A DNA stretch of 62,345 bases, counting the filler. It is 7 parts of 7 records of this genome, joined end to end, with 100 filler letters (N's around TTAATTAATTAA, not from the genome) between each part and the next. Parts side by side here need not be neighbours in the genome. Positions count along the whole stretch, not along the records: positions 35,356 to 46,795 come from SRR31156797_30122; 6 more parts are not named here. The stretch is one strand, 5' to 3'. Position 1 is the first letter of the stretch. Each line of letters opens with the position of its first letter. The notes below the pieces were generated by a model that did no database searches, had not been told where the DNA came from, and saw only the letters and a list, made by a program, of their open reading frames with translations. The translations under genes and the position numbers were made by a program. This document shows, one piece after another, positions 27,307 to 47,131 of the stretch.

Positions 27307-27406
27307 NNNNNNNNNNNNNNNNNNNNNNNNNNNNNNNNNNNNNNNNNNNNTTAATTAATTAANNNNNNNNNNNNNNNNNNNNNNNNNNNNNNNNNNNNNN
27401 NNNNNN
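27307..27406. other. Artificial contig spacer
   Basis: N-run with linker. Confidence 0.99.
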
Positions 27407-27440
27407 TTTAAGCCCTCGGAGAGCCGCCGGAGGCATTACT

Positions 27441-28040: not shown

Positions 28041-28045
28041 AAAAA

Positions 28046-28073
28046 CGGGCTTCTGTCATAAGACAAAGGCCCG
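28046..28073. terminator. Bidirectional terminator hairpin
   Basis: CGGGCTTCTGTC-ataa-GACAAAGGCCCG between convergent genes, with A/T flanks. Confidence 0.7.
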
Positions 28074-28101
28074 CTTTATTTTTTACTTCTAATCCTGATC
28101 T

Positions 28102-31100: not shown

Positions 31101-31134
31101 TTTTCTTTTCAATGGTCAGCCGTGCAAGACTCAT
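28102..31134 (-). CDS. RND efflux transporter permease (AcrB/D/F family)
   Basis: 1010 aa; EDPEF, YPGA, ALGMLVDNAIVV, GMLIKNAIVL and RIRPV motifs. Confidence 0.95.
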   Translation of the reverse strand: MSLARLTIEKKTVSLVLTIVFFLGGIKAFLDMPRLEDPEFTIKEALVVTNYPGATPAEVADEVTDVIEGAAQQLKQLEKVTSISNRGQSIVTVEVQDQYDKDTLPQVWDELRRKVGDAQSSLPPGAGPSLVIDDFSDVYGILLSVTGDGYSQQDLQDYVTFLRKQLLLVENVAKITVWGEQQETVFVEISRARMSQLGVSLDSVYDTLSNRNLVVKSGNVKVGREYIEIAPSGGVESVEDLGDLFIRDGSGRLVPLRDVAEIHRGYQSPPSQIMGFNGYNAIAIGISMNPSANVVELGQAINGKLQQLKAQTPVGINVEEVYFQPSRVDNAVNSFVINLAEAVAIVIIVLLLFMGMQSGLLIGAILLITICGSFIFIQMAGVALERISLGALIIALGMLVDNAIVVIEGVLIRYQKGMDRIQAAVDVVEQSKWPLLGGTIIAIMAFAGIGLSPDSVGEFCRSLFIVLFISLMMSWITAVTVTPLLCEMFLRPKITDGGDPYGGFIFRMYRSILEFCLRHRVLTMATLVVMLVGSIYGFGFVKQSFFPDSTQPRFYIHYWLPQGTDIRATAEDVQELAEVILKDEQVKNVSTFTGQGAPRFILTYSPEKTAESYGLLLVEVKDYEKTGEVMARYKKYLYENYPQAEAKVKKFKLGPGRAASIEVRFSGPDTKALRQLSREAQDIMLATGHAESVRDDWRQDVKVLSPVIMEAQAKRAGITRPDLAKAMQMFFSGTNIGVYREGDKLLPIVARPPDNERLDVNQIGDVQIFSPVAGRMIPVEEVVSGFETNIEPGKLRTRNRMLTITASCEPIKGLPSVLLNELRPQIEGMKIPAGYTMEWGGEFEDASDAQTSLAASLGGPFLIMILATVMLFNNLRIPTIIWLTVPLSIIGVTCGLLLTGEPFGFMALLGFLSLSGMLIKNAIVLLDQINIELAEGKEPYRAVVDSALSRIRPVAMAAGTTILGMLPLVTDAFFSAMAVTIMAGLAFATVLTLLVVPVLYTMFYKVKNPA

Positions 31135-32237
31135 CCGCGGCCCCCGATTCTACCCTTGAGAATTTTTACTTCCTGTCCGTCACGCAAATAATGTGCTCCG
31201 GAGACCACCACCTGTTCACCGGTGTTGATGCCCTCATGAATTTCAAAGTTGTCGTTAACGATCCGGCCCACCTCAACGTTACGCTTATTCACTACACCTT
31301 TCTCATATACCCAGACATATTTATTCTGATCCGGATAACCGACCACTGCTGAGATAGGAACAGAGACAGAACTTACATTTTTATTTTCCGGCATGCTGGC
31401 CACAACCTCGGCAGTCATTCCCGGATGAATGGAAAAACCGTCAGGATTCTCCATTTTAAGCGTTACTTCATATGTCTGGGTCTCAGCATTGGCCTTAGTC
31501 TGGAATTCCTTGATACCCAATTTGAAATCACGTTCGGGATATGTCTCGAATTTTGCAACACCCTTAAAGTCATGGCTGTTCTTATTAATAAATCCACGAA
31601 CCCAGATATTTTCCGGCACATCCACAACCACATCAAGAGAGGAGGTATCCTCAAGCTGAACAATGGGTTCTTTGGCCTGAACAAACTCATGGTTCTCTAC
31701 AGACTTAACAGCAATGGTCCCGCTGAACGGAGCCACCAGACGGGTGTACTGTAAATTGAGCTTGGAACGTCGTAGCTCCTGTATCAAAGAATTTACCGTA
31801 GCTCTGCTACTCTCAAAAGTACTCTGAGCTGAATCAAAAGCAGACTGAGCAACAGTGTCGGACTCGAGCAGCTTGGCGTTGCGGTCATAATTCAATCTGG
31901 CTTCTTTCATAACTGACCGGGCACCAATAAGTTTGGCTTCAAGATCGGCAACTGCGGCCTGAAAATCACGCTGGTCCAACTCGGCAATGATCTGTCCTTT
32001 TTTGACGTAGTCGCCTTCCTTCACAACAAAGCGTTCAATCTGCCCGGGAACACGAAAAGCTAATGTTGCTTCACGCGTAGCCTTGACCTTACCGGGAAAT
32101 TTCCGCAGCTCAGGTGCGTTGCCGTCTGTAATCTTCATAACCCTTACCGGACGCACAGGCTGTTCCACATGAACTTCTTCCTTGCATCCCGGTAAAAGCA
32201 TCATTGCCATTATCAAAAAAAACATTTTGTTTCGCAT
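31131..32237 (-). CDS. RND periplasmic adaptor (MFP) lipoprotein
   Basis: LPGC lipobox; LAFRVPG, LVAPFSG and PGMTA motifs. Confidence 0.93.
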   Translation of the reverse strand: MRNKMFFLIMAMMLLPGCKEEVHVEQPVRPVRVMKITDGNAPELRKFPGKVKATREATLAFRVPGQIERFVVKEGDYVKKGQIIAELDQRDFQAAVADLEAKLIGARSVMKEARLNYDRNAKLLESDTVAQSAFDSAQSTFESSRATVNSLIQELRRSKLNLQYTRLVAPFSGTIAVKSVENHEFVQAKEPIVQLEDTSSLDVVVDVPENIWVRGFINKNSHDFKGVAKFETYPERDFKLGIKEFQTKANAETQTYEVTLKMENPDGFSIHPGMTAEVVASMPENKNVSSVSVPISAVVGYPDQNKYVWVYEKGVVNKRNVEVGRIVNDNFEIHEGINTGEQVVVSGAHYLRDGQEVKILKGRIGGRG

Positions 32238-32268
32238 GGTTCTCCCCCCACTGCATTTACTTTTATCC

Positions 32269-32290
32269 ACTAATCAATCAGTTGATTAGT
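32269..32290. promoter_or_regulatory. Palindromic operator upstream of the MFP gene
   Basis: ACTAATCAA-TCAG-TTGATTAGT perfect inverted repeat containing AATC-N4-GATTA. Confidence 0.65.
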
Positions 32291-32306
32291 TGTAGGTTAA
32301 AAAAAA

Positions 32307-32888
32307 TTATGACCAGAGCGCAGGGCTACCAGACTTCAACAAAGTCGTCACAACTTCCCTGTAAGCATCAATTTTCGTATCATCATCGATGTAATGCCCA
32401 CCACCAAGCAGATAGTCTGAAAAAATGGTCCCCAATACCGCTGTGAAGGTTATATCTTTAACATCTTCAGAACGATTTGGACTAACCCCGGTACGAGACA
32501 AGAATTCACTGAACAAATTCCACCCTGAATTATATAAACTCTTCCGTAAATCCTCTAATTCAGCGCTGTCGTGGTTAAGCTCACGTAATCCGACAAGATA
32601 AACATGACGATTCTGCCGTGCATCAGCAAGAAGTGCGGCTACATTTAACTCTACAAGTTCATAATGATCTGAAGCTTCAGACATGGACTCTTTAATTACG
32701 AACATCATCCGTTCCATGAAGCTGGTAAAAATCTCACGTAACAACCCGGACTTACCACCGAAGTAGTAAGATATCATGGCGCTGTTCACGTCAGCTTCCC
32801 GGGCAATATCCCTGATTCCAACTGAGTTGTAGGAACGTTCGGCAAAGAGCTTGGCCCCGGCATGGAAAATCTTTTCGCGTTTTGTCAT
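32307..32888 (-). CDS. TetR/AcrR-family regulator
   Basis: HTH VGIRDIAREADVNSAMISYYFGGK. Confidence 0.93.
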   Translation of the reverse strand: MTKREKIFHAGAKLFAERSYNSVGIRDIAREADVNSAMISYYFGGKSGLLREIFTSFMERMMFVIKESMSEASDHYELVELNVAALLADARQNRHVYLVGLRELNHDSAELEDLRKSLYNSGWNLFSEFLSRTGVSPNRSEDVKDITFTAVLGTIFSDYLLGGGHYIDDDTKIDAYREVVTTLLKSGSPALWS

Positions 32889-32897
32889 GAGGCTCAA

Positions 32898-32935
32898 TTA
32901 ATCATTCGATTAACAAATGTCAATCATCTGATTAA
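32898..32935 (-). promoter_or_regulatory. tetR promoter with two AATC-N4-GATTAA operators
   Basis: TTAATC-ATTC-GATTAA (32898-32913) and TCAATC-ATCT-GATTAA (32920-32935), the second overlapping a minus-strand TTGACA. Confidence 0.65.
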
Positions 32936-32955
32936 TTTTCTCGCAAATAAATTCC

Positions 32956-33474
32956 CTACCAAAGATTTTTTGTGTCTAACTCTTTGTAGACCTTAGGAGC
33001 ATCAGACTTCTTGCTGATATTGATGACTTCCACACGGCGATTCTGAGCTCTGCCCTGTGCGCTTTCATTTGAAGCTATAGGCTGGTCCTCACCCATGCCC
33101 TGCACTTCGATGCGCTCCGGGTCAATATTGAAATGGACTGCAAGGTAATTTTTAACTGCTTCTGCACGCTTGAGGCTCAGAGAACGATTGTACTCACTTT
33201 TCCCGGCGGAATCAGTATGACCGACCAACCTGACCTGCATAGACGCCCCTGGCCCGGAAGTCAGCGCAGTTCCAAGGGAGTCCACTACCGAGTACGCCTT
33301 CTTGCTAATCTTGGATGAATTGACCTTAAACTCAATCTTCAGAAATGCCCTTCCACCCGGATCGGTGATCATACGCAGAATGTCATCAGAATTGGCAGCA
33401 AATCCATCCTGCTCGGCATAAGCAAACGGTAGGCAGGTAAATATAAATATGATTAGGACAGCTAACTTCTTCAT
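32956..33474 (-). CDS. OmpA-family peptidoglycan-binding protein
   Basis: Signal peptide; GHTD, NRSLSLKRA and NRRVE motifs. Confidence 0.9.
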   Translation of the reverse strand: MKKLAVLIIFIFTCLPFAYAEQDGFAANSDDILRMITDPGGRAFLKIEFKVNSSKISKKAYSVVDSLGTALTSGPGASMQVRLVGHTDSAGKSEYNRSLSLKRAEAVKNYLAVHFNIDPERIEVQGMGEDQPIASNESAQGRAQNRRVEVINISKKSDAPKVYKELDTKNLW

Positions 33475-33590
33475 AGGGTCCTCCGGGCAAAGTTTAAGGG
33501 ATAATTATAAAATACCCTGTCCACAGCTTTGGGGCAAGGGTTTCAGTCCACAGGAGACCGCTGTAAATAAATATCTAAAAACAGACTGTC

Positions 33591-34007
33591 TCAATATCCG
33601 GGTTTAGAACGGCTCTTTTTTAGATCAGAACGCTTCTTCTTACCATCCATCCTTTTACGTTTTGCGGAATATGGGACTTTGGTTTTCTTTCTTTTGCGCA
33701 CAGGCTTCAAGGCCTCGGCAATAAGTTTGGCAAAACGGAAAACTGCTTCTTCCTTGTTACGGAACTGACTGCGATGCTCTTCGCAGGAAATCTGCAACTC
33801 ACCTTTGGAGTTAATCCGCCCGGACAGCCGAGTTTTGATTAAAGACTTCCGGTGGTCACTCAGGCTGGGAGAATCCTGAACATTAAAGACAAGGGTCACC
33901 TTGGATGAAGTCTTGTTAACGTGCTGACCGCCGGGGCCGGAACTGCGGCTGGTCAGAAAACTAATTTCATTATCAGGTATGGACAATACGGGAGTGATAC
34001 TTATCAT
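33591..34007 (-). CDS. arfB: Alternative ribosome-rescue peptidyl-tRNA hydrolase
   Basis: SSGPGGQHVNK, RSQFRN and a basic C-terminal tail. Confidence 0.93.
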   Translation of the reverse strand: MISITPVLSIPDNEISFLTSRSSGPGGQHVNKTSSKVTLVFNVQDSPSLSDHRKSLIKTRLSGRINSKGELQISCEEHRSQFRNKEEAVFRFAKLIAEALKPVRKRKKTKVPYSAKRKRMDGKKKRSDLKKSRSKPGY

Positions 34008-34119
34008 AGCTATCGGTTGGATATTCTGTCTTTTGTATGCGTATGTGGCGTACGCAGTCTATTAAGTACGGTGCTTCGGGTCTTGCATCGTTCTTACTTT
34101 TTTTCAAGGAGAATTTATT

Positions 34120-34479
34120 ATGAAAATCGCACTTCCCTCTAGAGATGGAATGGTCGACGGTCACTTCGGACATTGTGAAGCTTTCACCATCTACACTCTG
34201 GATGAGTCCAAAAATATCATCGAAGAAGAAAAACTTACACCTCCCCCGGGCTGCGGATGCAAATCCAACATTGTGCCCACCCTCGCTGAAATGGGCGTAA
34301 AGGTTCTGCTGGCAGGCAACATGGGTCAGGGTGCGGTTAACCTCTTGCAGAACAACGGCATTCAGGTTATCCGCGGTTGTGGTGGTGAACTCAAAGAAGC
34401 AGTTGCACAGTGGGCGACAGGAAGCCTGACCGACTCCGCAACTGTCTGCGACGACCACGGTTCCTGCGGCAACCATTAG
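34120..34479 (+). CDS. NifB/NifX-family metal-cluster-binding protein
   Basis: MKIALP, HFGHC, GCGCKS and GNMGQGA motifs. Confidence 0.9.
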   Translation: MKIALPSRDGMVDGHFGHCEAFTIYTLDESKNIIEEEKLTPPPGCGCKSNIVPTLAEMGVKVLLAGNMGQGAVNLLQNNGIQVIRGCGGELKEAVAQWATGSLTDSATVCDDHGSCGNH

Positions 34480-34521
34480 GATATAATCCCAAGGCCGCAA
34501 ATAAATAATTGGAGATAGAAC

Positions 34522-35004
34522 ATGAATGAATGTCCCTGCGGTTCCGGCAACGCTTACGAAAGCTGCTGCGAACCCTACATCACAGGAAAAGAGCCTGCAC
34601 CCACTGCTGAAGCACTTATGCGTTCCCGCTACAGTGCATTCGCTGTAAAGAATGTCGACTACCTCGGTGATACCCTCGCCCCGGAAAGCAAGCATGATTA
34701 CGACGAAGATCAGGTCAAAACTTGGGCAGAAACATCCACATGGCTCGGCCTTGAAATTGTTTCTACCTCCAAGGGCCTTGCCGACGATGAAACCGGCGAA
34801 GTCGAATTCATCGCCAAATTCAGGCAATCGGGAGCTATCCACACCCATCACGAAGCCAGCCGCTTTGAAAAAAGAGACGGCAACTGGCTTTACCTTGATG
34901 GCGACATCGTTCCTCCCATGCCGATCAAGAAAGATAAGAAAATCGGACGCAACGAGCCCTGCCCTTGCGGCAGCGGCAAGAAATACAAGAAGTGCTGCGG
35001 CTAA
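34522..35004 (+). CDS. YchJ-family protein with N- and C-terminal SEC-C motifs
   Basis: [29 protein letters not shown] and [18 protein letters not shown] motifs. Confidence 0.92.
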
Positions 35005-35033
35005 CCGCAACCTTCCACAAGTCTGAAAATGAT

Positions 35034-35068
35034 AAAACCCCCGCTCCAAGGAACGGGGGTTTTGTTTT
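35034..35068 (+). terminator. Intrinsic terminator
   Basis: AAAACCCCCG...CGGGGGTTTTGTTTT. Confidence 0.8.
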
Positions 35069-35255
35069 GGTATTAGGGCAGTTGCCTCTTGTCATGAAAC
35101 TAAAAACGCTATTCATACATGAACAGGGCTTTCTTGGGTATCAACGACTGGATTCATTGCACCAAAATTTAAGCGCGAAGCCTAGCCTGCGCCGTTTTTA
35201 TCATTAAAACCAAGCACGGCTATACCAATCCCCCAAAAAGCATTACAAGACGAAT

Positions 35256-35355
35256 NNNNNNNNNNNNNNNNNNNNNNNNNNNNNNNNNNNNNNNNNNNNT
35301 TAATTAATTAANNNNNNNNNNNNNNNNNNNNNNNNNNNNNNNNNNNNNNNNNNNN
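35256..35355. other. Artificial contig spacer
   Basis: N-run with linker. Confidence 0.99.
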
Positions 35356-35356
35356 G

Positions 35357-36583
35357 GGCTTCAAGCTGAAGAAGTTCAAACTTCAGGACCGTTATCAGTT
35401 TCAGGGCCTTCCCATATCCATTGAGAACAAAAAGGGTTCCTGGCGCCGGGGCGTTGATCCGGACGGCCATGAATGGAAAATTCGTATGGCCTTTGATTAT
35501 GGATATATCCGTAGGACCAAGGGTGAGGATGATGAGGGTGTGGATGTTTATGTGGGAGAGGATCGATCCGCAAAGCACGTTTACATCGTGAAGCAGCACA
35601 AGATTGAAAAAGTCAAAGGGTGGAAGGGTGAGTATTGTCCTGTATGTAACGAACATGCCCATGATTGCACATGCAAGGAATTTTTTGACGAGGACAAGGT
35701 TTTTCTCGGTTTTCCGAATAAAAGGGCCGTGATCAAGGCGTATGGCCGACAGTACGATTCACCGCTTTTTATGGGGCCGATTTCCACCATGACCATTGAA
35801 GATTTCAGAGCCTTGGTGGGCGGTCCCTGGGAAAAGGTCAAATTGCCCTTGCAGTTCGTGGGTGAAAGTGCGGCGGTCAGGACACCGCTGACGGTCCACG
35901 AAAACATCCAGCGGGGCCGGGAAGCCATGAAACGGGTCATCTCCCGCCATGTCGATGAACCTCGGGCAATGTTTCGCAAGGATCTGGGCTGGATCGCTTT
36001 TTATTGGGGAAAACCGGGCAAACAGCCGCCAGAGTTCGGCTCGAAACAAGAGATGCTTGATTGGTGGAATGGCCTTTCAAATAAATTCTCATTGTTCCGG
36101 AAAGGGCATGGGATATCGCATATTATTGCTAAACGCGATTGGGAAGGGCGCTATATCGAACCATTTTTAGGACAGGATGGGAAGGAAGTCGCCTTCAAAT
36201 TGGTTGAAGTGATTGCAAAAGGAAGAATGCTGGCAAACGGCGGAGGTGGAGCTCGGGTAGATATCTCTTACCGCGGTTACATGGTGACGTTATCAAAAAA
36301 GCTGTTCGAAAAAGAACAGGTTTGGGTCCTGTCTGGAATGAAGAAGCTGGGCAAAGATGAGGCATATGAAATAGTACTTGAATCTTCCGATGATCGTGGC
36401 TTTAGCTCTATGGCCACGACCTACACACCACAAGACTTCAATGGCCATCTTGTGGCGGGAGCGGAAGATTCAAGCCTGGTTACTTCTGATGGAACCGGAG
36501 AGGTTAACGACTCGACCGGCCCTACACACGATGGACCTACACTTACTCGTTCCACCGAGGGAGCAGAAGCAAATATCCTATAG
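35357..36583 (+). CDS. Polyvalent-type protein: InPase domain with Cys/His insert plus PBECR-type nuclease domain, 5'-truncated
   Basis: Frame open from contig start: ISIENKKGSWRRGVDPDGHEW..M..DYGYIRRTKGEDDEGVDVYVG...FDEDKVFLGF; then AMFRKDLGWIAFYWG...GHGISHIIAKR...WVLSG. Confidence 0.75.
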   Translation, partial: GFKLKKFKLQDRYQFQGLPISIENKKGSWRRGVDPDGHEWKIRMAFDYGYIRRTKGEDDEGVDVYVGEDRSAKHVYIVKQHKIEKVKGWKGEYCPVCNEHAHDCTCKEFFDEDKVFLGFPNKRAVIKAYGRQYDSPLFMGPISTMTIEDFRALVGGPWEKVKLPLQFVGESAAVRTPLTVHENIQRGREAMKRVISRHVDEPRAMFRKDLGWIAFYWGKPGKQPPEFGSKQEMLDWWNGLSNKFSLFRKGHGISHIIAKRDWEGRYIEPFLGQDGKEVAFKLVEVIAKGRMLANGGGGARVDISYRGYMVTLSKKLFEKEQVWVLSGMKKLGKDEAYEIVLESSDDRGFSSMATTYTPQDFNGHLVAGAEDSSLVTSDGTGEVNDSTGPTHDGPTLTRSTEGAEANIL

Positions 36584-36697
36584 TAAGAGTATCAATAATA
36601 CCCCAAGGGATGTCAAGAGAACTTTCGATTATTGATTGGACACCATTGAGCTGCAACGGTATCGATTTTTGTTTTGGTGGGAAATGCTATCTTTATT

Positions 36698-36729
36698 TAA
36701 AGCTGAAAAGATTAAATGATAAAAAGTGA
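36698..36729 (+). promoter_or_regulatory. Four phased 8-bp AT-rich units upstream of darB
   Basis: TAAAGCTG AAAAGATT AAATGATA AAAAGTGA, following a TGcTATCTT extended -10-like element. Confidence 0.4.
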
Positions 36730-36743
36730 AGGATTTGTAAATA

Positions 36744-39700
36744 ATGGGTGAAGCCTTGATTTTGGAGCGGGCGATACCGCAGTCAGTGCGTGAAAGAATA
36801 GAAGGGGCAAAATCCTATGACGATATTGCCCAGGTATTTGCGGAAGTGTTTTTCATGGCATCTATCCCGGGCATTGAAACCGGGCCGACGGCATACAAAA
36901 ATGAAAAATCAGACTTTGGGTTGAAATCCAAAGGAGTTAAGACACGGGAGAAAATCAACGCCAAGGCCCGGGAAATCCTGAAAAAGGCAGACAAGTTGGA
37001 CGACTTGTCCCAGGAGGATATTGATTTTCTGAAACAATATTCCGGACGGGGCGGTTTGACCGAGAATTCTCAGTTTGAATATTACACTCCGACCCCCATT
37101 GCCGAAGGTGTGTGGGATATTTTGAAGATGCACGGGTTTGAAAACGGTAATGTGCTGGATCCTTGCACCGGTGCCGGTGCCTTCCCTACCACCAAGCCCA
37201 AGGGCGTTCTGGTGACCGGGGCAGATATCGACCCTGTGGGGTCCAAGATAGCGCAGATGTTCAACCCGGAAGATTCCATCAATAACAGTTCCTTTGAGGC
37301 CCTGGTCGCGAAGACCGAGGACAGCTCCTTTGATTCTGTGGTCGGAAACGTGCCTTTTGGTGATGCCCGGGGGAAGAGCATCCATGAGGATCCAGCATAC
37401 AAGACTGAAAAGCGCATCGAGCGGTATTTCCTGCTGAGGATCATGGACAAGCTTAAACCCGGTGGCCTGGCCTGCCTGGTTGTCCCGATCAACATCGTCG
37501 GCGCCAAGAACGACAAGTGGAAGAGATTCCGTATCGCCATGAGCAAGAAGGGGGAGTTCCTTGGGGCCCATAAGTTGCCATCCAAGGCTTTCCGTGCTCA
37601 GGGGACCGATACCGTTGTTGATATTATCGTTTTCAAGAAACACCCCCAGGACCTGCTTGACAAGGTTGATGATATTGATTTTGAAACCCTGAAAGAGTCG
37701 AACTTCATATGGGATGAGTTCATCAATGGTCAATATTGGGCAGGGGAGGGGAAGCGGTTCATCCAGGGTAAATATGTCCCCAAGGTGGCCGGGGACCGGT
37801 GGAGCCGAGAAACCGTCGACGGTGATATTGATGCCATGGCTATCAAAAGTAAACTGGCACAGCATTTTGATTCCCGAATTGACTGGGATGCCTTGGAGAG
37901 TGCTCCTGTGGCAGTAAAAAATTACGTGAATGGTGACCAGAAGATTATCAACGGCATCCAGTATGAAATGGTGGGCGGTGAATGGCAGAGGGTTCACCTG
38001 GTTGAAAAAGATGATATCGGTATCGATGAGGGCAAATATGGGGCGAAGACTATCGAGGACCTCAAGGCTATGCTCGCATCTCCGGAAGGCGCCCTGGGAC
38101 TCACATCAAAGCAGCTGTTTTCTATTTACAAAACCTGGCCGGACATGCTCTCACCTCTTCAGAAAGACGCGGTTGAATTCTCCATGAGCCAACCCGATGA
38201 TTCTTTCCATGAACAGGCCAGCAGGGGAACTATCATCGGCGGGCTCCTGGGAAGATTGAAGGCGCATCCGGACGAGAATGAGCGGACCCGTCTGCAGGAA
38301 CTGGTAGTCGCTGAAATCGAAAAGTATGGCCACCCAAAGAATAACGCGCAGCTTTGCCTGACCGGATCCTCCTCACGGCAGTTCGGGCTTTTCATGAATT
38401 CCGTGGATGAAAAAGGGCAATTTTCCGATCTTCTGGCCGGCACCCTGGAAGCAGACCGGAGTGAGTTTGATTCCACCAATATTCAATCCATCGTTGAGCA
38501 TCTTTTTGTCCGGGAGGGCATCCATGCCATTGAGCTTGAGGATGTTAAAAAGCTGTATGCCGGCACCATGAAACTCGATTCTCTTGGGGACCTGGCTCAG
38601 GTGGAGAACATTGCCATTACGGCAGATGGCATGGTGATGCCCTTTGGCCGGTACACTGCCGGGGATATTTATGCCAAAGTTCAGGCCATGACCGATGCCA
38701 TGGCGGACGAGGAGGATCAAAGGATCAAGGATAAATGGCAGCAGCAGATAGACGCGATCAAGAAGAAGCGTAAGGTCACGGCCACCGAGGATATAACTTT
38801 CGGATTGCAAGATAAGTGGTTTTCCAAAAAGTACTTGGTGGACTTCCTTCGTGAAAACGGATACCCGGGTCTGAAGTACGGCTATTACGAAGAGGTCGAG
38901 AAAGAGGATCTCCTCGATGGAAGTACGTTCATGGGCAGGCAGTTTGTTGAAGACGTGGACGCCATCGAAGGGGAGTTTATCGGTATCCAGGGGAGCGGCT
39001 TTTCCAAGCAGTTCCTGAAATATCTGAACGGCGGTAAAATCACATCCTCCAAGCAGGAATACATTGAAGAGTATAAAAACGAGGTTGCGGCCGTAACGGA
39101 AAATTTTAACGCCTGGATGCAGCAACATGAAGACATGGACCAGGTTGCGGCCACCTACAACCGGAAGTTCAATGCCTTTTTGCCCCACGAGTATGAGGAT
39201 ACCGACCTGCATCTCGAGGGCTTTGCCAAACAGGTGAAGTTGCACGGATACCAGAACTCGGCCATTCGCCGGTTGTCCGAGGAGGGCCGGGGGATCCTGG
39301 GGGATGATGTCGGGCTTGGGAAGACCTTCCAGGCCATTGCACTGGCACAATACAATAAGCAGATGGGCAGATCAAAGAAAACCTGTATAGTTGTTCCGGA
39401 CGCTGTGCTGGCGAACTGGTATCATGAGGTTAATTTCCTGACGGGCAACATGAATGATGTCCTGTTTGTGGGGTTTGAACCCAAGCGGGACAAAACCGGG
39501 AGTATCCTCCGGGAAGCTGTGAAGGATGAAACCGGACAGCCGAAGATCAATAAGCTTACCGGAGAAACTGAATATCAGGACGTCCTGATAAAGCGGAAAT
39601 CGAAAAAAGATATTTGGGAGAAAATGTGGGAGATCCCCACGAGCAGTAAGTCCCTTGTTGTTATGACCAAGGAGAAGTTCGGTTCTATCCCCATGCGTCC

Positions 39701-42700
39701 GGAGACAAAAGAAAAGTACACCTCCAAGATGGTCGAGCGTTCCTTGATCAGTGCCCAAATGGGAGAATCTCTCTTGAAGGATGGTGGCAAAAAAAAGAGC
39801 TACCAGGACGATAAAGATAAGGCCAACCTTGAGGCAAAATACGCCGATGAAGGCACGTCAAAAAAAGAGGAACTGCCTTATTTTGAAGACATGGGCTTTA
39901 CCGATGTCATCATTGATGAAGCCCACGAGTATAAGAATTCGTATCAGGCCAAAGACACCAAGGGGATCGCTTACCTGCCTTCCGCGCCATCTTCCAAAAG
40001 GGCCATGGACATGACCTTGAAGACATCCTACCTGAAAGATGTCAACAATGGCCGTGGCGTTTATCCTCTCACTGCAACACCGGTAACCAATTCCGTCTTT
40101 GAAATTTATAATATGCTCTCCTATGTCTGCCCTGTCGAAGAATTCGAACGATTCGGGGTTTACACCGTCGATGATTTCGTTAAGGCCTTTGGCAAGATCG
40201 AGCCGGTTGACAAGGTGATGGTCAGCGGGGAGGTGAAGCCCCGGGATGGATTGGTGGGATTCCGGAACCTGGACGGCCTTCGGAATCTGTTCCATAAATA
40301 CTGCATCCTGAGAAATGCCGAAGACGTAGGGCTCGAGTTGCCGCCCCATGAAGAGGTCAACGATGAAGTTGCGTTGTCCGGAGAGCAGGTTGAAATTTAC
40401 AACGTTCTCAGAGACGAGGCCAAGGAAGCGGCCAAGCCCGGTTCAAAAGTATCTATGTTCTCCGTTATCCGGGACATGGATCGAATAACCACGGATGCAG
40501 ATCTGTACAACCACAAAATGACGTTTCATTTCCGTCCGGAGGATGAAACAAAAGTCCAGAAGCTTGTGGCTGATCTTCCAAGCATGATGACGGTGACCGA
40601 AAAAGGTGAGGACGGACGGTCGTTCAAAACACAAGTCGAGGTCACCCATGAGACATCAAAGGAAGATGGTGCTTATGTTCTGGTGGTCCCGGAGCAGGTG
40701 GAAACGGCTGTTGCTACCAGGTTGGCCAGGTTCGGCATTGATGATGCTGATGTATCACACCCCTTGACGCCAAAGTATGCCAAATTGGTTGAGAACCTTC
40801 GTTTGCACCTTGAGGCGAACGGCAAGCAGATTATTTTTACCGAGGAAAAATCCCAGCACCAGAAACTCAAAAGGATACTTGCTCACCATGTTCCCCTTGC
40901 CCGGGACAAGATCGGCATCATTAATGCCGAGGAGGCCGAGGGAAGCAAGCTGCAGAAGATCTCGGACTCCTACAATTCGGGCAAGATAAAAATCGTGATT
41001 GCAAACAAAAAGGCTGAGGTCGGGGTCAACCTGCAAAAGGGGACCACCGCCATTCATCATCTAACCCTACCATGGACGCCGGCAAGTATCCAGCAGCGGA
41101 ACGGCCGCGGGGTCCGCCAGGGAAATAAGGCCGCCAATATCAAGATTTATTATTACCTGGGCGGCAAATCTTTTGATTATTACCGCCTGGATTTACTGAA
41201 GCGTAAGTCCAATTGGATGCGGGATCTTTTCAATGGGGACGCTGTTGAATCGGAGAATGCCAACGCCCTTTCTCAGGACGATATGTTCGATCTTCTGGCA
41301 GACAATCCAGAAGAGGCCAAACGTCGGAGAATGGAGCGCTTGGCCAAGCAGAAAGAGGAGCGGGAAGAACGGGAACGCCGCCGGCTGATCAATATGATGC
41401 AGCAGGTCGCAAATATCAATGAAACTCTGGCTCGTTATGATGAAAAGAAAGGAGAGCGTCGGAAAAAACTTGAAAGTGATATCTCAGAGCACGAGCGGGT
41501 TATTGCGGATCTCCGGGCAAGGGGCCTGAAGTTTGAAGAGGGAGATGAGCGCCGGAAAAAGATCGGGGCCCGGATCTCAAAAAAACAAAAGCGGTTGGCC
41601 GAATCCAAGAAAACCTTGTCCGGGCTTGATGCGGCCTTCGACGCAAAAAAGGTCGTTCTCGAGGCTAAAACAAAGCAGCTCCGTGGTGTTTTGAACCTGA
41701 AGGCCCAAAAGGGGGAATTGCCCTTTGATGCAAAGCTGATCGATCATCCGGAGGACATGGTTGCAACCCTGGACGGCAAGGTGCTTGTGGTCGGAGAAAC
41801 CTATGAGAACCGGAGAGATCCTTCAAATATTTACAGGATTACAAAGGTATTTAATGATCCCAAGTGTGTTCAGTTGGAGGCGGTTATGGGTGGGTTGTAC
41901 AGTCTCAGACAGTCCTATGTTCAAGGTATTGACGGCCTGGTCGTCCTTCTGGCCAATTGGTCTTTCAAGAATCTCGTGAAATGCTCTTACTCGGAAAAAG
42001 AGCTTGCCTTGAAAAAGGTCTTGGCTTCAAGCATGGCCTATCAGGAGATTTCCAAAGAGATAGACAAGGCCACCTTCTATGAGAATGTCGATAAAATGGA
42101 GCTTTACGGCGATTTCCTGGTGCGGACAGTGGATGGGCACGAATTTAATCACGGATCGGATATCAAAGATCGAAGCACCATTGTTTATCCGGAACCCGGG
42201 AAGGAGGGGTTCCGTAAAGTTCTGGCGGAGACATACCTTGCCGCCTTCAGGGAGCATGGGTATGTGAGCGTATCCATATCAAGCATCATGGCAGGCGTAT
42301 TCGGCAGCGACTGGAAAAATGTTGCCATGGAATACGGCAAGATCGTAACGGAGACGGAGATCAGGAGCTTTTATGGCAATTTCATTCAGGATTATCTTGA
42401 TGATCACCTGGATAACGGTGCCAATGAAACAGACCCACGAATAATCCTGAGCGTTTTTAAAAACCGCTATAGCCCTACGGGACTTCATGCCAAGATCGGG
42501 GTTGCCGCGGAAAAGATCGGGGACAATACGGTATTTATTCGGAAGGTCCTGGGAGAATGTATGAGAAGTCATGAGGAAGACCTACGAGAGAAGACCCGAC
42601 AAATCGAAAAAGAAGAGGAGCTGGCTAAGCTTGAAGAGTTGAAGAACCATCCCGATTACAAAGAAGTGCCCGGGAGGATACGGGAAGCATTCGAGCAGAT

Positions 42701-42962
42701 GGGGATCACTGTTAAAACCAACATGACCCAGGCGGTATTGCCGGGGACCCGTCGATTCCGAGATACCACGGTAGAACCCTTTTCCAGATGGTTTATCCAG
42801 GATAAGCACGGCAAGGCCGGGGTGCTTTTCCGGGTGAAGGATATCCTGAAAGCTCGGTATAATGCCAAATTTTTCAGCAGCCAGTCCGGGGATTTCCACG
42901 GGGCCTGGTGGCATGTCAGCTCCCAAGAAGATCTTGAGGATATTTATGAACTGATGGTGTAA
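36744..42962 (+). CDS. darB: DarB-like antirestriction protein (N6-adenine methyltransferase plus SNF2 helicase)
   Basis: EYYTPTPIAEGVW, LDPCTGAG, VVGNVPFG, EFLGAHKLP, DDVGLGKT, IIDEAH, LTATP and QQRNGRGVRQG; closely follows P1 DarB as recalled. Confidence 0.85.
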   Translation: MGEALILERAIPQSVRERIEGAKSYDDIAQVFAEVFFMASIPGIETGPTAYKNEKSDFGLKSKGVKTREKINAKAREILKKADKLDDLSQEDIDFLKQYSGRGGLTENSQFEYYTPTPIAEGVWDILKMHGFENGNVLDPCTGAGAFPTTKPKGVLVTGADIDPVGSKIAQMFNPEDSINNSSFEALVAKTEDSSFDSVVGNVPFGDARGKSIHEDPAYKTEKRIERYFLLRIMDKLKPGGLACLVVPINIVGAKNDKWKRFRIAMSKKGEFLGAHKLPSKAFRAQGTDTVVDIIVFKKHPQDLLDKVDDIDFETLKESNFIWDEFINGQYWAGEGKRFIQGKYVPKVAGDRWSRETVDGDIDAMAIKSKLAQHFDSRIDWDALESAPVAVKNYVNGDQKIINGIQYEMVGGEWQRVHLVEKDDIGIDEGKYGAKTIEDLKAMLASPEGALGLTSKQLFSIYKTWPDMLSPLQKDAVEFSMSQPDDSFHEQASRGTIIGGLLGRLKAHPDENERTRLQELVVAEIEKYGHPKNNAQLCLTGSSSRQFGLFMNSVDEKGQFSDLLAGTLEADRSEFDSTNIQSIVEHLFVREGIHAIELEDVKKLYAGTMKLDSLGDLAQVENIAITADGMVMPFGRYTAGDIYAKVQAMTDAMADEEDQRIKDKWQQQIDAIKKKRKVTATEDITFGLQDKWFSKKYLVDFLRENGYPGLKYGYYEEVEKEDLLDGSTFMGRQFVEDVDAIEGEFIGIQGSGFSKQFLKYLNGGKITSSKQEYIEEYKNEVAAVTENFNAWMQQHEDMDQVAATYNRKFNAFLPHEYEDTDLHLEGFAKQVKLHGYQNSAIRRLSEEGRGILGDDVGLGKTFQAIALAQYNKQMGRSKKTCIVVPDAVLANWYHEVNFLTGNMNDVLFVGFEPKRDKTGSILREAVKDETGQPKINKLTGETEYQDVLIKRKSKKDIWEKMWEIPTSSKSLVVMTKEKFGSIPMRPETKEKYTSKMVERSLISAQMGESLLKDGGKKKSYQDDKDKANLEAKYADEGTSKKEELPYFEDMGFTDVIIDEAHEYKNSYQAKDTKGIAYLPSAPSSKRAMDMTLKTSYLKDVNNGRGVYPLTATPVTNSVFEIYNMLSYVCPVEEFERFGVYTVDDFVKAFGKIEPVDKVMVSGEVKPRDGLVGFRNLDGLRNLFHKYCILRNAEDVGLELPPHEEVNDEVALSGEQVEIYNVLRDEAKEAAKPGSKVSMFSVIRDMDRITTDADLYNHKMTFHFRPEDETKVQKLVADLPSMMTVTEKGEDGRSFKTQVEVTHETSKEDGAYVLVVPEQVETAVATRLARFGIDDADVSHPLTPKYAKLVENLRLHLEANGKQIIFTEEKSQHQKLKRILAHHVPLARDKIGIINAEEAEGSKLQKISDSYNSGKIKIVIANKKAEVGVNLQKGTTAIHHLTLPWTPASIQQRNGRGVRQGNKAANIKIYYYLGGKSFDYYRLDLLKRKSNWMRDLFNGDAVESENANALSQDDMFDLLADNPEEAKRRRMERLAKQKEEREERERRRLINMMQQVANINETLARYDEKKGERRKKLESDISEHERVIADLRARGLKFEEGDERRKKIGARISKKQKRLAESKKTLSGLDAAFDAKKVVLEAKTKQLRGVLNLKAQKGELPFDAKLIDHPEDMVATLDGKVLVVGETYENRRDPSNIYRITKVFNDPKCVQLEAVMGGLYSLRQSYVQGIDGLVVLLANWSFKNLVKCSYSEKELALKKVLASSMAYQEISKEIDKATFYENVDKMELYGDFLVRTVDGHEFNHGSDIKDRSTIVYPEPGKEGFRKVLAETYLAAFREHGYVSVSISSIMAGVFGSDWKNVAMEYGKIVTETEIRSFYGNFIQDYLDDHLDNGANETDPRIILSVFKNRYSPTGLHAKIGVAAEKIGDNTVFIRKVLGECMRSHEEDLREKTRQIEKEEELAKLEELKNHPDYKEVPGRIREAFEQMGITVKTNMTQAVLPGTRRFRDTTVEPFSRWFIQDKHGKAGVLFRVKDILKARYNAKFFSSQSGDFHGAWWHVSSQEDLEDIYELMV

Positions 42963-42967
42963 AGAAA

Positions 42968-42991
42968 TAAAGTTTTAAATTTTGAAAGTTT
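42968..42991 (+). promoter_or_regulatory. Three phased 8-bp units upstream of ulx
   Basis: TAAAGTTT TAAATTTT GAAAGTTT. Confidence 0.4.
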
Positions 42992-43039
42992 TTGATAGAT
43001 TCGGGTCATATCGGCCTGAATCTTAAAAGGAAAAATATC

Positions 43040-43444
43040 ATGCATATTCACAAACCGACAAAAGAACAGTTGCAGCCCTTACTCGATGAGGCTTGCTCAA
43101 AGCAAACAGAGGAGCAGTGGATCGAAAGGCTTCTTGAAGCAATAAAAACAGTTCTTCAAAAACAACCACTGCGGTATCGAGGGTATGGGGCCTACTGGTG
43201 GTTGCTCAAAAAAATGTTTATCGAAAGAGGGTTCCTGGACTTCGGAGAGCATGTGGACCTCCAGTGGCATGAGGCTATGGATTACGGGGATGAGAAATTC
43301 AACCTGGCCGCTGCCTTTGCCTATGAGGATGCCAGGTTTGAAATCGTCAATGTTTATGACAGCTATCACACCCTGAATACCGGTGCGGGCTCTATTGATT
43401 ATGTCTCAGCGGATGAGGACATGGAGTTGTTCGGAAGAAAATGA
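43040..43444 (+). CDS. ulx: Ulx-like protein (DarB incorporation factor in P1)
   Basis: KP...L...TEE, P..YRGYGAYW..KK...ERG...FG..VD pattern recalled from P1 Ulx; lies directly after darB. Confidence 0.7.
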   Translation: MHIHKPTKEQLQPLLDEACSKQTEEQWIERLLEAIKTVLQKQPLRYRGYGAYWWLLKKMFIERGFLDFGEHVDLQWHEAMDYGDEKFNLAAAFAYEDARFEIVNVYDSYHTLNTGAGSIDYVSADEDMELFGRK

Positions 43445-43482
43445 TGTGATCGCAACACGCAAAGAGGTTTGAGGCTTCGTCC

Positions 43483-45156
43483 ATGCCCGAAAAGAAAAAA
43501 AGAAAAAAAGTTCAAAAAGTCAGCCTATGGAACAAATTATTTGGCGGCTACAATGAAGAGCGTAACGAGCAGAGCTCCGACATTACCGAAGCCAACCCAC
43601 AAGGCAATGTCCATGGGTTGGCCCCTTTGCCGGGAAACCTTCTGGCGCAAAAAGAGGTCATAGGCGCTTCGGAGATCGGGACCGCCGAGGCCGAGCAGTT
43701 CAAGGATCAATTTCCGACGGAAAGGCTGGCTCAATATGGGTTCCTGTCAACCATGGATCGTGATTCAACCATAAGCGCTGCAATTACCCTGCATGTTAAC
43801 CAGGCGCTCAGCGCCAAGACAGCGACAGGTGAAATAGTCTCCATTGAGTCCACGTCCGACAAAGACAATATGTATGTCAAGGATCTCCGTGATACGTTTA
43901 AGGAAATCATAAATAAAAATTGCCAACAATGGGCCTACAATGCCGCTTTAAATGGCGTATGGTATGTTCGACCTTATGGTGCTCAGGGAGTCGGGATAAA
44001 GCATATACGGAGCGATTATTACACGCATCCTCGTTTTATAAAAGAGTATGAGCATGGTGGTCAGTTGGCCGGGTATACCCACGCCTACCAGGATGTTGCC
44101 AAAGAGGGGCGGGTGGAACTCATGGCCCCCTGGAAGTTCGTCTCCTTTAAGGTTCCCAACATGAAAAATGATGGATTGGTTGAGCCGATCAGATTTGATC
44201 AGGAAAAATTTGATATCGGGGACGATGACTGCCTGAATGAGGAACTTGTAGAGACACAGAACTATGGCAAATCGATCATTGAAACTGCCTTCGACCCATG
44301 GTTTGATCTGCAAAACGCCATCCTGAGCCTTAACATGAGCAGGCGTAATGCCGCACGGCTTGAGCGCGTTGTAGGGGTAAATACCGGCAAGCTTTCCCCG
44401 GTAAAGGCGGCTGAATATCTAAATTCGGTTTCATCCCAACTCAAGAAGGCCAATGAACAGCACGCCAGGCAATCGATAACCAAGGGTTTTTTCCAAACAG
44501 TTGTGAATCACCTGATTCCCATCTTTGGGGACCGTGGAAGGCTGGACATCTCCACGGTTGAGGGGTCCCCAAACATTGAGGGGCTTGAGGATGTGATGTT
44601 TCATGTAAAAAGGCTTGGCGGTGCCCTGGGGATAGATCCGTCCTTGCTCGGTTTTGGAGACATGCTTTCCGGAGGCCTTGGGGAGGGCGGGTATTTCCGA
44701 TTGTCGATAATGGCGGCCATAAAATCAAATCTTATTCGCCAGGCGATCAGAGACGGTATTGAGGAGCTGTTCAATATCCACATCGCCTACAAATACGGAA
44801 AATATTTTTTACCCGGGCAACGGCCATGGAGGCTTGTTTTCAACTCTATTTCTACGGCCGTTGAGCGCGAGGAGATGGAGAATATGGAAAGTCGGGTTAA
44901 CTATGCAACCATGCTATCAACTTTGGTGCAAACTGTAGATCCCGAATTTTCAAAAATGGACTGGAACGCCTTCAATAATTATTTATGGACGGATATCCTG
45001 AAGGTTGATGAAGAGAAGTACTCTGCCATGTTTCCCAAAAAAATAAAATCAGAAGTTCCGCCAAACGAGGAGGAGCCGGTGCTTGAATCGGCAGTGGAGG
45101 AGCATGTGAGTAGGCTAATCAATGAATTCTATGAAAAGGAGGGGCATTGTGCCTGA
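43483..45156 (+). CDS. prt: Phage portal protein, P1 Prt-like
   Basis: 557 aa directly before the protease; ETQNYGKS, LGGALGIDPSLLGFGDMLSGGLGEGG and HIAYKYGK motifs. Confidence 0.75.
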   Translation: MPEKKKRKKVQKVSLWNKLFGGYNEERNEQSSDITEANPQGNVHGLAPLPGNLLAQKEVIGASEIGTAEAEQFKDQFPTERLAQYGFLSTMDRDSTISAAITLHVNQALSAKTATGEIVSIESTSDKDNMYVKDLRDTFKEIINKNCQQWAYNAALNGVWYVRPYGAQGVGIKHIRSDYYTHPRFIKEYEHGGQLAGYTHAYQDVAKEGRVELMAPWKFVSFKVPNMKNDGLVEPIRFDQEKFDIGDDDCLNEELVETQNYGKSIIETAFDPWFDLQNAILSLNMSRRNAARLERVVGVNTGKLSPVKAAEYLNSVSSQLKKANEQHARQSITKGFFQTVVNHLIPIFGDRGRLDISTVEGSPNIEGLEDVMFHVKRLGGALGIDPSLLGFGDMLSGGLGEGGYFRLSIMAAIKSNLIRQAIRDGIEELFNIHIAYKYGKYFLPGQRPWRLVFNSISTAVEREEMENMESRVNYATMLSTLVQTVDPEFSKMDWNAFNNYLWTDILKVDEEKYSAMFPKKIKSEVPPNEEEPVLESAVEEHVSRLINEFYEKEGHCA

Positions 45157-46153
45157 AATAATAAAGTGTCGATTTAATTTGTTTGATGAGGGTAGGGACT
45201 ATACCGGGCATCACCGGCAGTATGTGTTGGAGAACGCCCGAAAGGTTTGTTATTCCCCTGCAACCAGGGAAGGGCTCAGACTTCGGGAAAAACTCGGGTA
45301 CCTGGGGCACGGTAGGCGGGAGATGGCCGGGAAGGTCCGGATCGGTGAAGTTGAAAAGGTGGAGCTGCCGGATGGAACGATGGCCGTGGTTGAAAATGTC
45401 CCCAGCAATGTAACAGTCTTCTTTGAGATTGATCAGAAAGGGAATGTCGACCACCACCAGGAGGTCCTATCCGAGAACGCTCCGGGGAAGGTGGTTTCCG
45501 GGCTGAATAAATCCAGGGTCGGTGGTTTTTCCTGGGCCATGGCCGGCATGGACGGGGGAGCTCATGGCGCCACCCGTGTAACATCCTTTGAGGGGTTTGA
45601 TTACGTGATGAACCCCGGTTTTTCGGCAAACAGGGGGTATGTGCTGGAATCTGCAGATGGCAAATCAAAGGACATGGTCCTGGAGAGTATCTGCAAAATG
45701 GGTGTTGAAGACAAGCTTGCCGACAAATACCTGGAAAGCTGGACCGCCTCTGCCCAGGCGTATGCCATGGAACTTGAAGATCGGTTGACGAATGCTGAGA
45801 TCTATGAGTCCGCTTTGCGGGAAAAGAACGAGACCCTTGATCTTCGGGTGAAGGAACTGGAAGAGCAGGCCCAGGCAAGGCGAACGCTGATCGCTGAATG
45901 TGCCAGGAACCATGCCGTGGTTGTCCCGGAGAACGTTGCAGATGCCCTTATCGGCATGACCAGTGAGGAAGATTTTGAAACCGTTATCGGCTTTTTCGAG
46001 GCTGCCGGATCCGTTGATTTGTCAAGGTACCCGTTACCAGGTGGTAAGCGGGAGAAAAGAGTTGTTCCTGCTTATCGAGGGGAACCGGCTGCACCTGAAT
46101 ATGGGCAGGCTGCTGCTGCCGTTGAGTTTGAGGAGACGGTCTTCATTCGGTGA
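45149..46153 (+). CDS. pro: Prohead (head-processing) protease, P1 Pro-like
   Basis: RQYVL, EGLRL, GYLGHGRR, NVP, GGFSWA and SFEGFDYVMNP match recalled P1 Pro; GTG start after GGAGG; coiled-coil C-terminus. Confidence 0.8.
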   Translation: MPEIIKCRFNLFDEGRDYTGHHRQYVLENARKVCYSPATREGLRLREKLGYLGHGRREMAGKVRIGEVEKVELPDGTMAVVENVPSNVTVFFEIDQKGNVDHHQEVLSENAPGKVVSGLNKSRVGGFSWAMAGMDGGAHGATRVTSFEGFDYVMNPGFSANRGYVLESADGKSKDMVLESICKMGVEDKLADKYLESWTASAQAYAMELEDRLTNAEIYESALREKNETLDLRVKELEEQAQARRTLIAECARNHAVVVPENVADALIGMTSEEDFETVIGFFEAAGSVDLSRYPLPGGKREKRVVPAYRGEPAAPEYGQAAAAVEFEETVFIR

Positions 46154-46421: not shown

Positions 46422-46435
46422 ATCTGATCCTGTTC

Positions 46436-46693: not shown

Positions 46694-46730
46694 AAGGGTT
46701 CCCGCAAAGCAGGGCGGGGGCCCTTTTTTT
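46694..46730 (+). terminator. Intrinsic terminator
   Basis: AAGGGTTCCCGC-loop-GCGGGGGCCCTT followed by a T-run. Confidence 0.65.
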
Positions 46731-47123: not shown

Positions 47124-47131
47124 CTACTCCT

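Follow-up and report, generated by a model that had tools for sequence, protein, structure and literature searches.

The DNA analysed here, which we call the window, is a stretch of 62,345 nucleotides made up of 7 contigs joined by 6 artificial spacers of the form N44-TTAATTAATTAA-N44, for which 0.01 copies would be expected by chance. The fifth contig begins with an open reading frame (ORF) that is cut off at its 5' end and encodes two enzyme-like modules, one of the Pfam family InPase and one of PBECR1, with motifs at the module borders that match the site at which the capsid protein of phage P1 is cut, probably by its prohead protease. The best explanation is that the ORF encodes the last two modules of a late-gene polyprotein of a distant P1-like phage. 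The parts of the ORF and of the assembly around it are listed here, with amino acids (aa) counted along the translation, nucleotides (nt) along the window, and an arrow marking a predicted cut.

8445-8544, 14831-14930, 27307-27406, 35256-35355, 46796-46895 and 57073-57172: artificial spacers, N44-TTAATTAATTAA-N44
35356-46795: contig carrying the ORF, fifth of seven, 11,440 bp, GC content 0.49, with the ORF at its very start
35357..36583, + strand: 5'-truncated ORF, 408 codons and a terminal TAG, C-terminal part of a polyvalent or polyprotein gene
35357..35866, + strand: InPase module, aa 1-170, predicted family-I-type pyrophosphatase fold (Pfam, AlphaFold2 (AF2), Foldseek, VIA-align)
35600..35680, + strand: insert of the InPase module, about 25 residues, aa ~82-108, immediately before the FFDEDK strand
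35858..35872, + strand: predicted prohead-protease site 1, V-G-E170↓S171-A, end of a conserved LQFVxE↓SA, in a linker with a low predicted local distance difference test (pLDDT) score
35867..36382, + strand: PBECR1 module, aa 171-342, predicted metal-independent endoribonuclease (Pfam, alignment A2, AF2)
36374..36388, + strand: predicted prohead-protease site 2, V-L-E342↓S343-S, in a low-pLDDT region
36383..36583, + strand: C-terminal tail, 66 aa, predicted disordered, ending with the stop codon

Translation of 35357-36583 on the + strand gives 408 residues with no internal stop, and the frame stays open to the first base of the contig and on into the spacer. The earliest in-frame ATG, GTG or TTG is at 35486, within the InPase domain. 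Since the ORF is open into the contig edge at 35356 and its first start codon falls inside InPase, it is the 3' part of a gene; a preliminary description of this DNA had treated 35357..36583 as one feature, and an open frame it is, but not a whole gene. A separate gene starting at the ATG at 35486 can be ruled out, as the InPase match starts at aa 10, upstream of that codon. The contig starts 3 residues past the site that relatives have in front of InPase, so the InPase module is essentially complete, with about 3 residues of the mature module lost at the edge. Features that touch a spacer are cut by an assembly break, and adjacent contigs need not stem from the same genome; their GC contents run from 0.35 to 0.53 across the 7 contigs. 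The missing 5' part is absent from the window, where tblastn with 12 relatives, N-terminal domains included, matched only 35384-41213, and a metagenome scan gave four distant loci only (32-35% identity) that are uninformative on the N-terminus of the gene. A 1768-residue relative, P0122, covers 100% of the ORF at 57% identity. Many relatives share an N-terminal domain of about 85-135 aa (...T.WD.P...GFGM.G...) that has no Pfam match and ends at the first Glu-Ser-Ala (ESA) site; it is seen in P0004, P0005, P0008, P0010, P0014, P0122-P0124 and P0136, all outside the window. It may be this shared domain that the contig edge has removed from the gene, and the domain may have a role in capsid targeting.

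The InPase module matches Pfam PF18823 in two stretches with E = 4.5e-33 and 114.4 bits against a cut-off of 26.8, the first stretch pairing aa 10-84 with profile positions 11-85 of 135. Over the 40 InPase sequences of alignment A1, residues E23, R30, Y48, D58, D63, D111, E112, K114 and Y133 are invariant. The A1 profile places the segment YGYI..D..E..D (YGYI...DxExxD) on the Y..D..D..D segment of solved family I pyrophosphatases (PPases), and the conserved residues presumably match those that go by the Escherichia coli PPase residue numbers. The AF2 model of the module has a mean pLDDT of 89.7, with blocks 91-110 at 94-96. All matches listed by Foldseek for this model are inorganic pyrophosphatases, the best with E = 4.7e-4 and a template modeling (TM) score of about 0.4, and VIA-align gives a moderate Z of 6.3 with a root-mean-square deviation (rmsd) of 3.6 Å over 110 aligned residues, its 50 best rows all being PPases. 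By profile and model, then, the module has the predicted fold and the putative catalytic residues of a type I pyrophosphatase, though its similarity to these enzymes is low. The soluble family I PPases, such as Mycobacterium tuberculosis Rv3628 and E. coli Ppa, have the same predicted fold and the Y..D..D..D segment in common with the module, but the module is only 11-19% identical to them (Z about 6, rmsd 3.6 Å over 110 residues), adds an insert of about 25 residues with four cysteines before the D-x-K strand, and is one module of a phage polyprotein. Because the catalytic positions are conserved, pyrophosphate (PPi) would be the default substrate; a nucleotide-like substrate is the alternative, and was raised by Iyer et al. 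(2017, PMC5512222).

Only one solved entry, portal gp19 of Pseudomonas phage Pa193 (Protein Data Bank (PDB) ID: 9B41, chain L), includes InPase in its sequence; the A1 profile finds the domain at the C-terminus, residues 635-757, with E = 5.5e-36. There the domain is fused to the portal, and the aligned region does not have the insert described below. A figure legend of the Pa193 paper gives gp19 residues 94-528 for the portal protomer, so that no experimental structure of the domain appears to exist; the accessible text of that paper does not mention a pyrophosphatase.

The insert contains CPVCNEHAHDCTC at aa 94-106, nt 35636-35674, directly ahead of KEFFDEDK. Its cysteines are arranged as C94-P-x-C97-x6-C104-x-C106, a knuckle pattern with CxxC...CxC spacing and four conserved ligands. 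Among 231 proteins, being the query and the relatives collected by sequence search, the knuckle is present in 24, and in these 24 Cys4 copies, query included, the four Cys are invariant, with EH varying to EQ, KK or EL. An exhaustive InPase search retrieved 9,288 cluster representatives with E <= 1e-3, of which 59 reached E <= 1e-30. Of the 150 best representatives, 52 have a knuckle, 35 as CxxC-x(5-9)-CxC and 17 as CxxC-x(5-9)-CxH, and 98 have neither; a canonical spacing of 17 residues is kept in 84 of those 98, and the spacing in this protein is about 40. A sister group with a Cys3His insert (CxxC...CxH) includes P0018, P0242, P0246, P0247, P0250 and others, and P0270 keeps the long loop but has no Cys in it. 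The preliminary description had put a Cys/His metal finger at 35636-35674, interrupting the InPase motifs just before FDEDK. The position is borne out, and the insert recurs rather than being a chance occurrence, but the ligands need restating: the His within the knuckle vary and the four Cys do not, which makes it Cys4, or Cys3His in some relatives. With the four Cys invariant, the His variable, and the insert recurring among the representatives, we take the Cys4 knuckle (Cys3His in the sister group) as the mark of a small InPase subfamily. The knuckle presumably binds zinc in a structural role, making a rebuilt loop beside the D-x-K strand more rigid. In the accessible text, Iyer et al. (2017, PMC5512222) note the lack of a beta-hairpin in InPase and are silent on any Cys-rich insert, although their supplementary alignments might show one.

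For the second module, Pfam PBECR1 PF18809 matches aa 204-330 with E = 5.3e-7 and 30.5 bits, marginally over the cut-off of 27.6, in a family where the scores of the relatives span 23.5-41.4 bits. What defines PBECR domains is a His within the N-terminal helix of the core, plus a Ser or Thr in strand 4 (Iyer et al. 2017, PMC5512222). The window copy has both, as H255 in the helix GISHIIAKR (aa 252-260, nt 36110-36136) and as S326 in the strand WVLSG. Across 28 PBECR1 cores in the collected proteins the His position holds His in 20 and Lys in 8, and the strand position holds Ser or Thr in 27. The 19 sequences of alignment A2 share an invariant core, ...EPRAM.R..LGWI.F.WG...G(I/V)S(H/K)I(I/L)AKR.WE...W(V/L)L(S/T)G. 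The AF2 model has a pLDDT of 80.9. In an unbiased VIA-align comparison its top two matches are contact-dependent inhibition (CDI) toxin nucleases, CdiA-CT NC101 (5i4q; Z 5.1, rmsd 4.8, 86 aa) and 7m5f (Z 5.0), with colicin D (Z 4.3) and BrnT (Z 4.1) in lower rows. These matches are consistent with what a BECR fold would give, at Z values in the noise range. Since such Z values are common, membership in PBECR1 rests on the marginal profile score together with the motifs. Among the phage papers on PBECR we found, in their accessible parts, no experiments on PBECR1. The two domains named in the preliminary description, InPase from its motifs and a PBECR-like domain from GISHIIAKR, thus both stand, the one by a Pfam match of E = 4.5e-33 and the PPase fold of the model, the other just above the cut-off with H255 and S326 kept; it is likewise right that both are known from polyvalent proteins (Iyer et al. 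2017, PMC5512222).

The tail after the PBECR1 module has motifs xTHxxP...R...GAE/GAxDS that recur, at times multiply, in other PBECR1 tails; xH..P follows 9 of the 28 cores and a GAxDS-like motif 14 of the 28. One idea is that the tail is a pro-peptide or an inhibitor of the RNase.

A motif at their borders links the two modules to P1. We define it as hydrophobic-x-Glu↓Ser/Ala, with a looser pattern that allows glycine, alanine or serine before the Glu. The modules of relatives are flanked on both sides by hydrophobic-hydrophobic-Glu-Ser/Ala-Ala, and cutting these proteins after the Glu gives InPase segments of 173-177 aa and PBECR1 segments of 169-178 aa, with each Pfam domain contained in one segment, save for the ParB domain, which the looser pattern hits inside. 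An equivalent of site 1 is found in 13 of the 24 knuckle-bearing modules, and a site downstream of PBECR1 in 18 of the 28 cores. In 230 relatives the strict motif occurs 78 times, concentrated in 42 proteins, against 10.5 +/- 3.0 in 200 shuffles with a maximum of 21. By a manual count in alignment A2, 10 of 12 stand-alone PBECR1 proteins have a leader of 6-20 residues that ends in the motif, e.g. M..(I/V)(L/F)E↓(S/A)A.

The experimental anchor is P1 gp23, for which Edman sequencing gave the mature N-terminus SVAAEM after removal of 120 residues (Gonzales et al. 2022, PMC9024508), with Pro named the likely protease (PMC9024508). In the gene, SVAAEM is preceded by AMLE, so the gp23 site is MLE↓SVA, at E120↓S121. 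P1 DarA has LLE68↓AISS, and in a cryo-electron microscopy (cryo-EM) study of 2026 DarA residues 1-69 are without density, which was attributed to Pro cleavage (PMC12810830). The portal of the contig has PVLE535↓SAV (nt 45079-45093), 22 residues from its C-terminus, and P1 Prt has QILE↓SVF, 10 residues from its own. The Pro-like protein of the contig has YVLE176↓SAD (nt 45641-45655) aligned with GMFE↓SAD of P1 Pro, just where the conserved half of the protein ends. The positions suggest that in this phage group the portal may be trimmed at the C-terminus and Pro may process itself. P1 gp23, Prt and Pro together have 4 strict sites against 0.45 expected, a number reached in 0 of 1000 shuffles, and the portal and Pro-like protein of the window have 3 against 0.31 expected, reached in 1 of 1000. 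No statement of a Pro consensus was found in the accessible text of PMC9024508 or PMC12810830.

P1 DdrB also has a site, GGLFE441↓SVSGG, in mid-protein. Iyer et al. (2017, PMC5512222) cite earlier work that reports DdrB to be processed to about 76 kDa and holds a metallopeptidase at its C-terminus responsible; cleavage at E441 would yield other sizes.

The arrangement is reminiscent of ejected head proteins in other phages, in particular in the leaders of the stand-alone PBECR1 relatives. The internal proteins of T4 and the heavily processed inner-body proteins of phiKZ have a short N-terminal leader ending at x-x-Glu that is removed by the prohead protease. In contrast to these, the present system has several enzyme cargoes per precursor, shuffled between genes, and the likeness drawn here is one of arrangement.

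Downstream of the ORF, the contig carries a string of genes on the same strand.

36744..42962, + strand: DarB-like methyltransferase and SNF2 helicase, 2072 aa (phrog_1685, E = 0; Pfam Eco57I, SNF2, Helicase_C)
42992..43444, + strand: Ulx-like protein, 150 aa (phrog_1629, E = 1.5e-35)
43483..45156, + strand: portal (phrog_1497, E = 8e-148; 36% identity to P1 Prt)
45122..46153, + strand: Pro-like protein, predicted prohead protease homologue, 343 aa (BLASTP 33% to P1 Pro, E = 6e-39)
46694..46725, + strand: strong terminator-like hairpin, 12-bp stem and T-run, closing the same-strand gene string

The interval between the ORF and the DarB-like gene has no comparable terminator-like site. A promoter scan found 10 sites against 9.9 expected and is uninformative. 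Between the Pro-like gene and the terminator, 46150-46688 holds two small ORFs (99 and 69 aa) without a PHROG match. The best named relatives of the portal are those of phages D6 and P1, at 36% identity, and in the P1 record darB, ulx, prt and pro are kept together. The Pro-like protein has no Pfam match, and a PDB sequence search for its protease family returned only spurious matches to designed repeat proteins, so none is assigned. Judged by these homologues, the contig is a distant P1-like head/Dar module, and this anti-restriction (Dar-type) module is the only functional context of the ORF. The findings speak neither for nor against the targeting of defences other than restriction that the preliminary description proposed.

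The P1 Dar system comprises DarA, Hdf, DdrA, DdrB, DarB and Ulx, alongside Prt and Pro. Homologues of DarB, Ulx, portal and Pro are clustered in the contig too, and relatives of the ORF carry a DdrB-type ParB domain. The differences are that the portal and Pro are only 33-36% identical to those of P1, that the genes lie on one strand where those of P1 are divergent, and that DarA, Hdf and DdrA are not seen in the contig, which spans 11.4 kb only. Nor is there an InPase or PBECR1 among the annotated genes in stretches 5555-30895 and 54000-64000 of the P1 record, and when the complete ORF was compared by tblastn with a phage collection, none of the 22 records that matched was a P1 record.

The gene order is found elsewhere. 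In L002, a 58-kb viral contig, a multi-module InPase protein is likewise followed by DarB-like and Ulx-like genes, and L006, a 155-kb contig of a metagenome-assembled genome (MAG) of Pseudomonadota, has the same order, with an InPase protein that also has a DdrB-type ParB domain. The viral scan produced three loci, two of them near-identical in the matched segment, and the genome scan one, L006. In PHROG, the relatives of InPase carry annotations such as minor head protein or virion structural protein. The Dar proteins of P1 reside inside the head and are ejected with the DNA (PMC12810830, PMC9024508), and virion delivery of the ORF product is plausible from its gene context. As for the adjoining contigs, PHROG scans of 27407-35255 and 46896-57072 were without head or Dar genes, and these are not evidently the same phage; the next contig encodes at 47132-48166 a RecA/UvsX-like recombinase of 344 aa (phrog_97, E = 6e-94), whose surrounding genes give no sign of the same phage.

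As to how such cargo might reach the capsid, a reporter needs no more than the first 30 residues of P1 DarB to be taken in (PMC9024508, where the T4 capsid-targeting sequence (CTS) is also mentioned). The DarB-like protein of the window begins with MGEALILE↓RA and then a helix, ...SYDDIAQVFAEVF (nt 36744-36851), and the DarB-like proteins of L002 and L006 start with the same leader and helix. The helix DWRxxIxxAxSFxDIxxVF follows ESA sites at the C-terminus of many relatives or stands before large cassettes. Together, leader and helix may serve in capsid targeting; their position corresponds to that of the 30 N-terminal residues in P1 DarB. Homology between these and the window leader and helix was considered by eye, and the similarity is too weak to claim. 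The same helix is also the N-terminus of a 609-aa protein in L006 (2020-3849).

Relatives of the two modules show how freely they combine. The closest InPase, at 87% identity, is P0002, a stand-alone protein of 228 aa. P0122 adds a DdrB-ParB domain and an ADP-ribosyltransferase to the two modules, P0123 has the order PBECR1, InPase, PBECR3, P0124 has two LPD3 domains flanking InPase, and in P0134 the PBECR1 module is fused to a DarB-like protein 56% identical to that of the window. The ORF has what marks a polyvalent protein, at least two unrelated effector domains in one polypeptide in a virion gene context, and InPase and PBECR1 belong to the repertoire of Iyer et al. (2017, PMC5512222), whose polyvalent proteins have the same two Pfam families in one gene near virion genes. 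Those authors already propose that phages package and inject InPase and PBECR, and that functional units are cut out of polyvalent proteins; they place InPase only in phage-type, virion-linked polyvalent proteins. They ascribe the processing to a built-in zincin-like metallopeptidase (MPTase), whereas here a prohead-protease motif bounds the modules. Pfam finds no peptidase domain in the ORF fragment or in the 6 multi-module relatives scanned, so processing, if any, must be in trans. Literature searches for polyvalent proteins with prohead-protease cleavage, and for InPase of polyvalent proteins, led only to Iyer et al. (2017), as far as the papers were accessible.

With these pieces in place, we favor the view that the ORF is the 3' end of a capsid-targeted effector polyprotein, from which a prohead protease would cut enzymes of about 19 kDa that are ejected with the DNA; we give this a probability of roughly 55%. 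The precursor would be synthesised late, alongside the DarB-like, Ulx-like, portal and Pro-like proteins, and would enter the prohead, where the Pro-like protease would cut it at E170↓S171 and E342↓S343. The freed enzymes would then be ejected with the DNA to act early in the next host, the pyrophosphatase on PPi or a nucleotide that contains a P-O-P linkage and the RNase on host or defence RNA. Being separated and flanked by motifs like that of the P1 prohead protease, the modules are probably released as separate proteins. The preliminary description had proposed a fusion of InPase with PBECR and its co-injection as an effector. The fusion holds for the gene, but probably not for a single protein, and co-injection is made plausible by the DarB-like, Ulx-like, portal and Pro-like neighbors, with what follows from it staying conjectural. 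What it observed is confirmed, and its interpretation is partly supported.

Several points weigh against the polyprotein view. The N-terminal part of the gene, which is the expected place of a capsid-targeting element, lies outside the window, and cleavage, packaging and ejection are all deduced for a phage that, like its close relatives, is known from sequence alone. The PBECR1 assignment is marginal by score, Foldseek with that model gave no match at E <= 1e-3, its VIA-align matches (Z <= 5.1) are within the range that the tool states to be noise, and a Lys stands in for the proposed catalytic His in 8 of the 28 cores. Site 1, VGE↓SA, has a Gly before the Glu and fails the strict pattern. 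Of the 24 knuckle-bearing modules, 10 have no upstream site and 11 no downstream site, mostly the distant ones, and the looser pattern matches twice inside the DdrB-ParB domain. The DarB-like and Ulx-like proteins of the window have no strict site, the six P1 Dar proteins have 1 against 1.24 expected, and 12 P1 proteins from outside the head, taken as controls, have 3 against 0.82 expected, a number reached in 52 of 1000 shuffles. Only one P1 Pro site is mapped experimentally. Because of the counts in control and Dar proteins, and of the sites missing from distant modules, the motif alone is weakly specific as a predictor; its weight comes from position, conservation, and identity with the mapped site.

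A rival reading is an uncleaved polyvalent protein, one in which the motif would be a conserved linker or an element for capsid targeting or docking, and the domains would act joined, possibly in a protein of the size of P0122. We consider this rather unlikely, while recognizing that polyvalent proteins delivered whole have been described, such as N4 virion RNA polymerase (vRNAP), ArdC and TraC1 (Iyer et al. 2017, PMC5512222), that the motif and the DWRxxIxxAxSFxDIxxVF helix also start DarB-like proteins, that the motif turns up in the P1 controls, and that removal of the 30-residue targeting signal of P1 DarB is not reported in the accessible text of PMC9024508. The identity of the motif with the mapped gp23 cleavage site argues the other way, as do its fit to the start of the DarA density, its conservation in both phages where the Pro protease domain ends, a typical place for autoprocessing, and the exactness of the module borders. 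A departure of another kind would be that the two enzymes never enter the virion, and are a cytoplasmic pair whose tasks are the housekeeping of nucleotides or PPi and the turnover of host RNA, with the head genes no more than neighbors. Family I pyrophosphatases are housekeeping enzymes, and gene neighborhood alone is weak evidence in a phage seen only as DNA, but the synteny with DarB-like and Ulx-like genes in three independent loci, the PBECR1 module fused to DarB in P0134, the minor head and virion structural annotations of the PHROG relatives, the InPase within the deposited Pa193 portal sequence, and the restriction of InPase to phage-type, virion-linked polyvalent proteins (PMC5512222) make this improbable. 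Finally, the domains might have no catalytic activity and be internal head proteins that play a structural part or condense DNA. For this one could cite the structural part that P1 DarA and Hdf have in head size determination (PMC12810830), or read the His-to-Lys change in 8 of 28 PBECR1 cores as relaxed catalysis. As the acidic, Lys, Arg and Tyr residues conserved in InPase are invariant in 40 sequences and the window copy retains His255 and Ser326, we give this very little credence.

The polyprotein view can be extended into a bolder proposal, which we offer only tentatively: that P1-like phages have plug-and-play injected effectors, with the protease motif and the targeting leader or helix as the only grammar, and that the knuckle InPase is a specialised phosphoanhydride hydrolase. 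Cassettes could then be set in any order, among them pyrophosphatase, RNases, ADP-ribosyltransferase, ParB-type nuclease and DarB, and any new cassette would automatically be packaged, released within the head, and injected. The knuckle InPase would have the lid of its active site rebuilt for a nucleotide-like or nucleic-acid-end substrate instead of free PPi.

Polyvalent proteins are regarded as one of the chief means by which phages deliver several counter-defence activities at infection, and the separation of those activities has so far only been proposed, by way of self-cleavage through built-in metallopeptidases. The present arrangement suggests a second route, in which the head maturation protease would cleave in trans at the motif mapped in P1. 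What is new here is the bracketing of both modules by the protease motif; the Cys insert or the linker motif may have been described earlier. The predicted zinc-knuckle pyrophosphatase and the PBECR1 RNase would be compact enzymes that fold separately. If the polyprotein view is true, the mature proteins that P1-like phages inject could be predicted from sequence by a simple rule, it would be explained why cassettes shuffle freely between genes, and the capsid-targeting tool of P1, by which virions deliver cargo, would be extended to cargo that can be cleaved.

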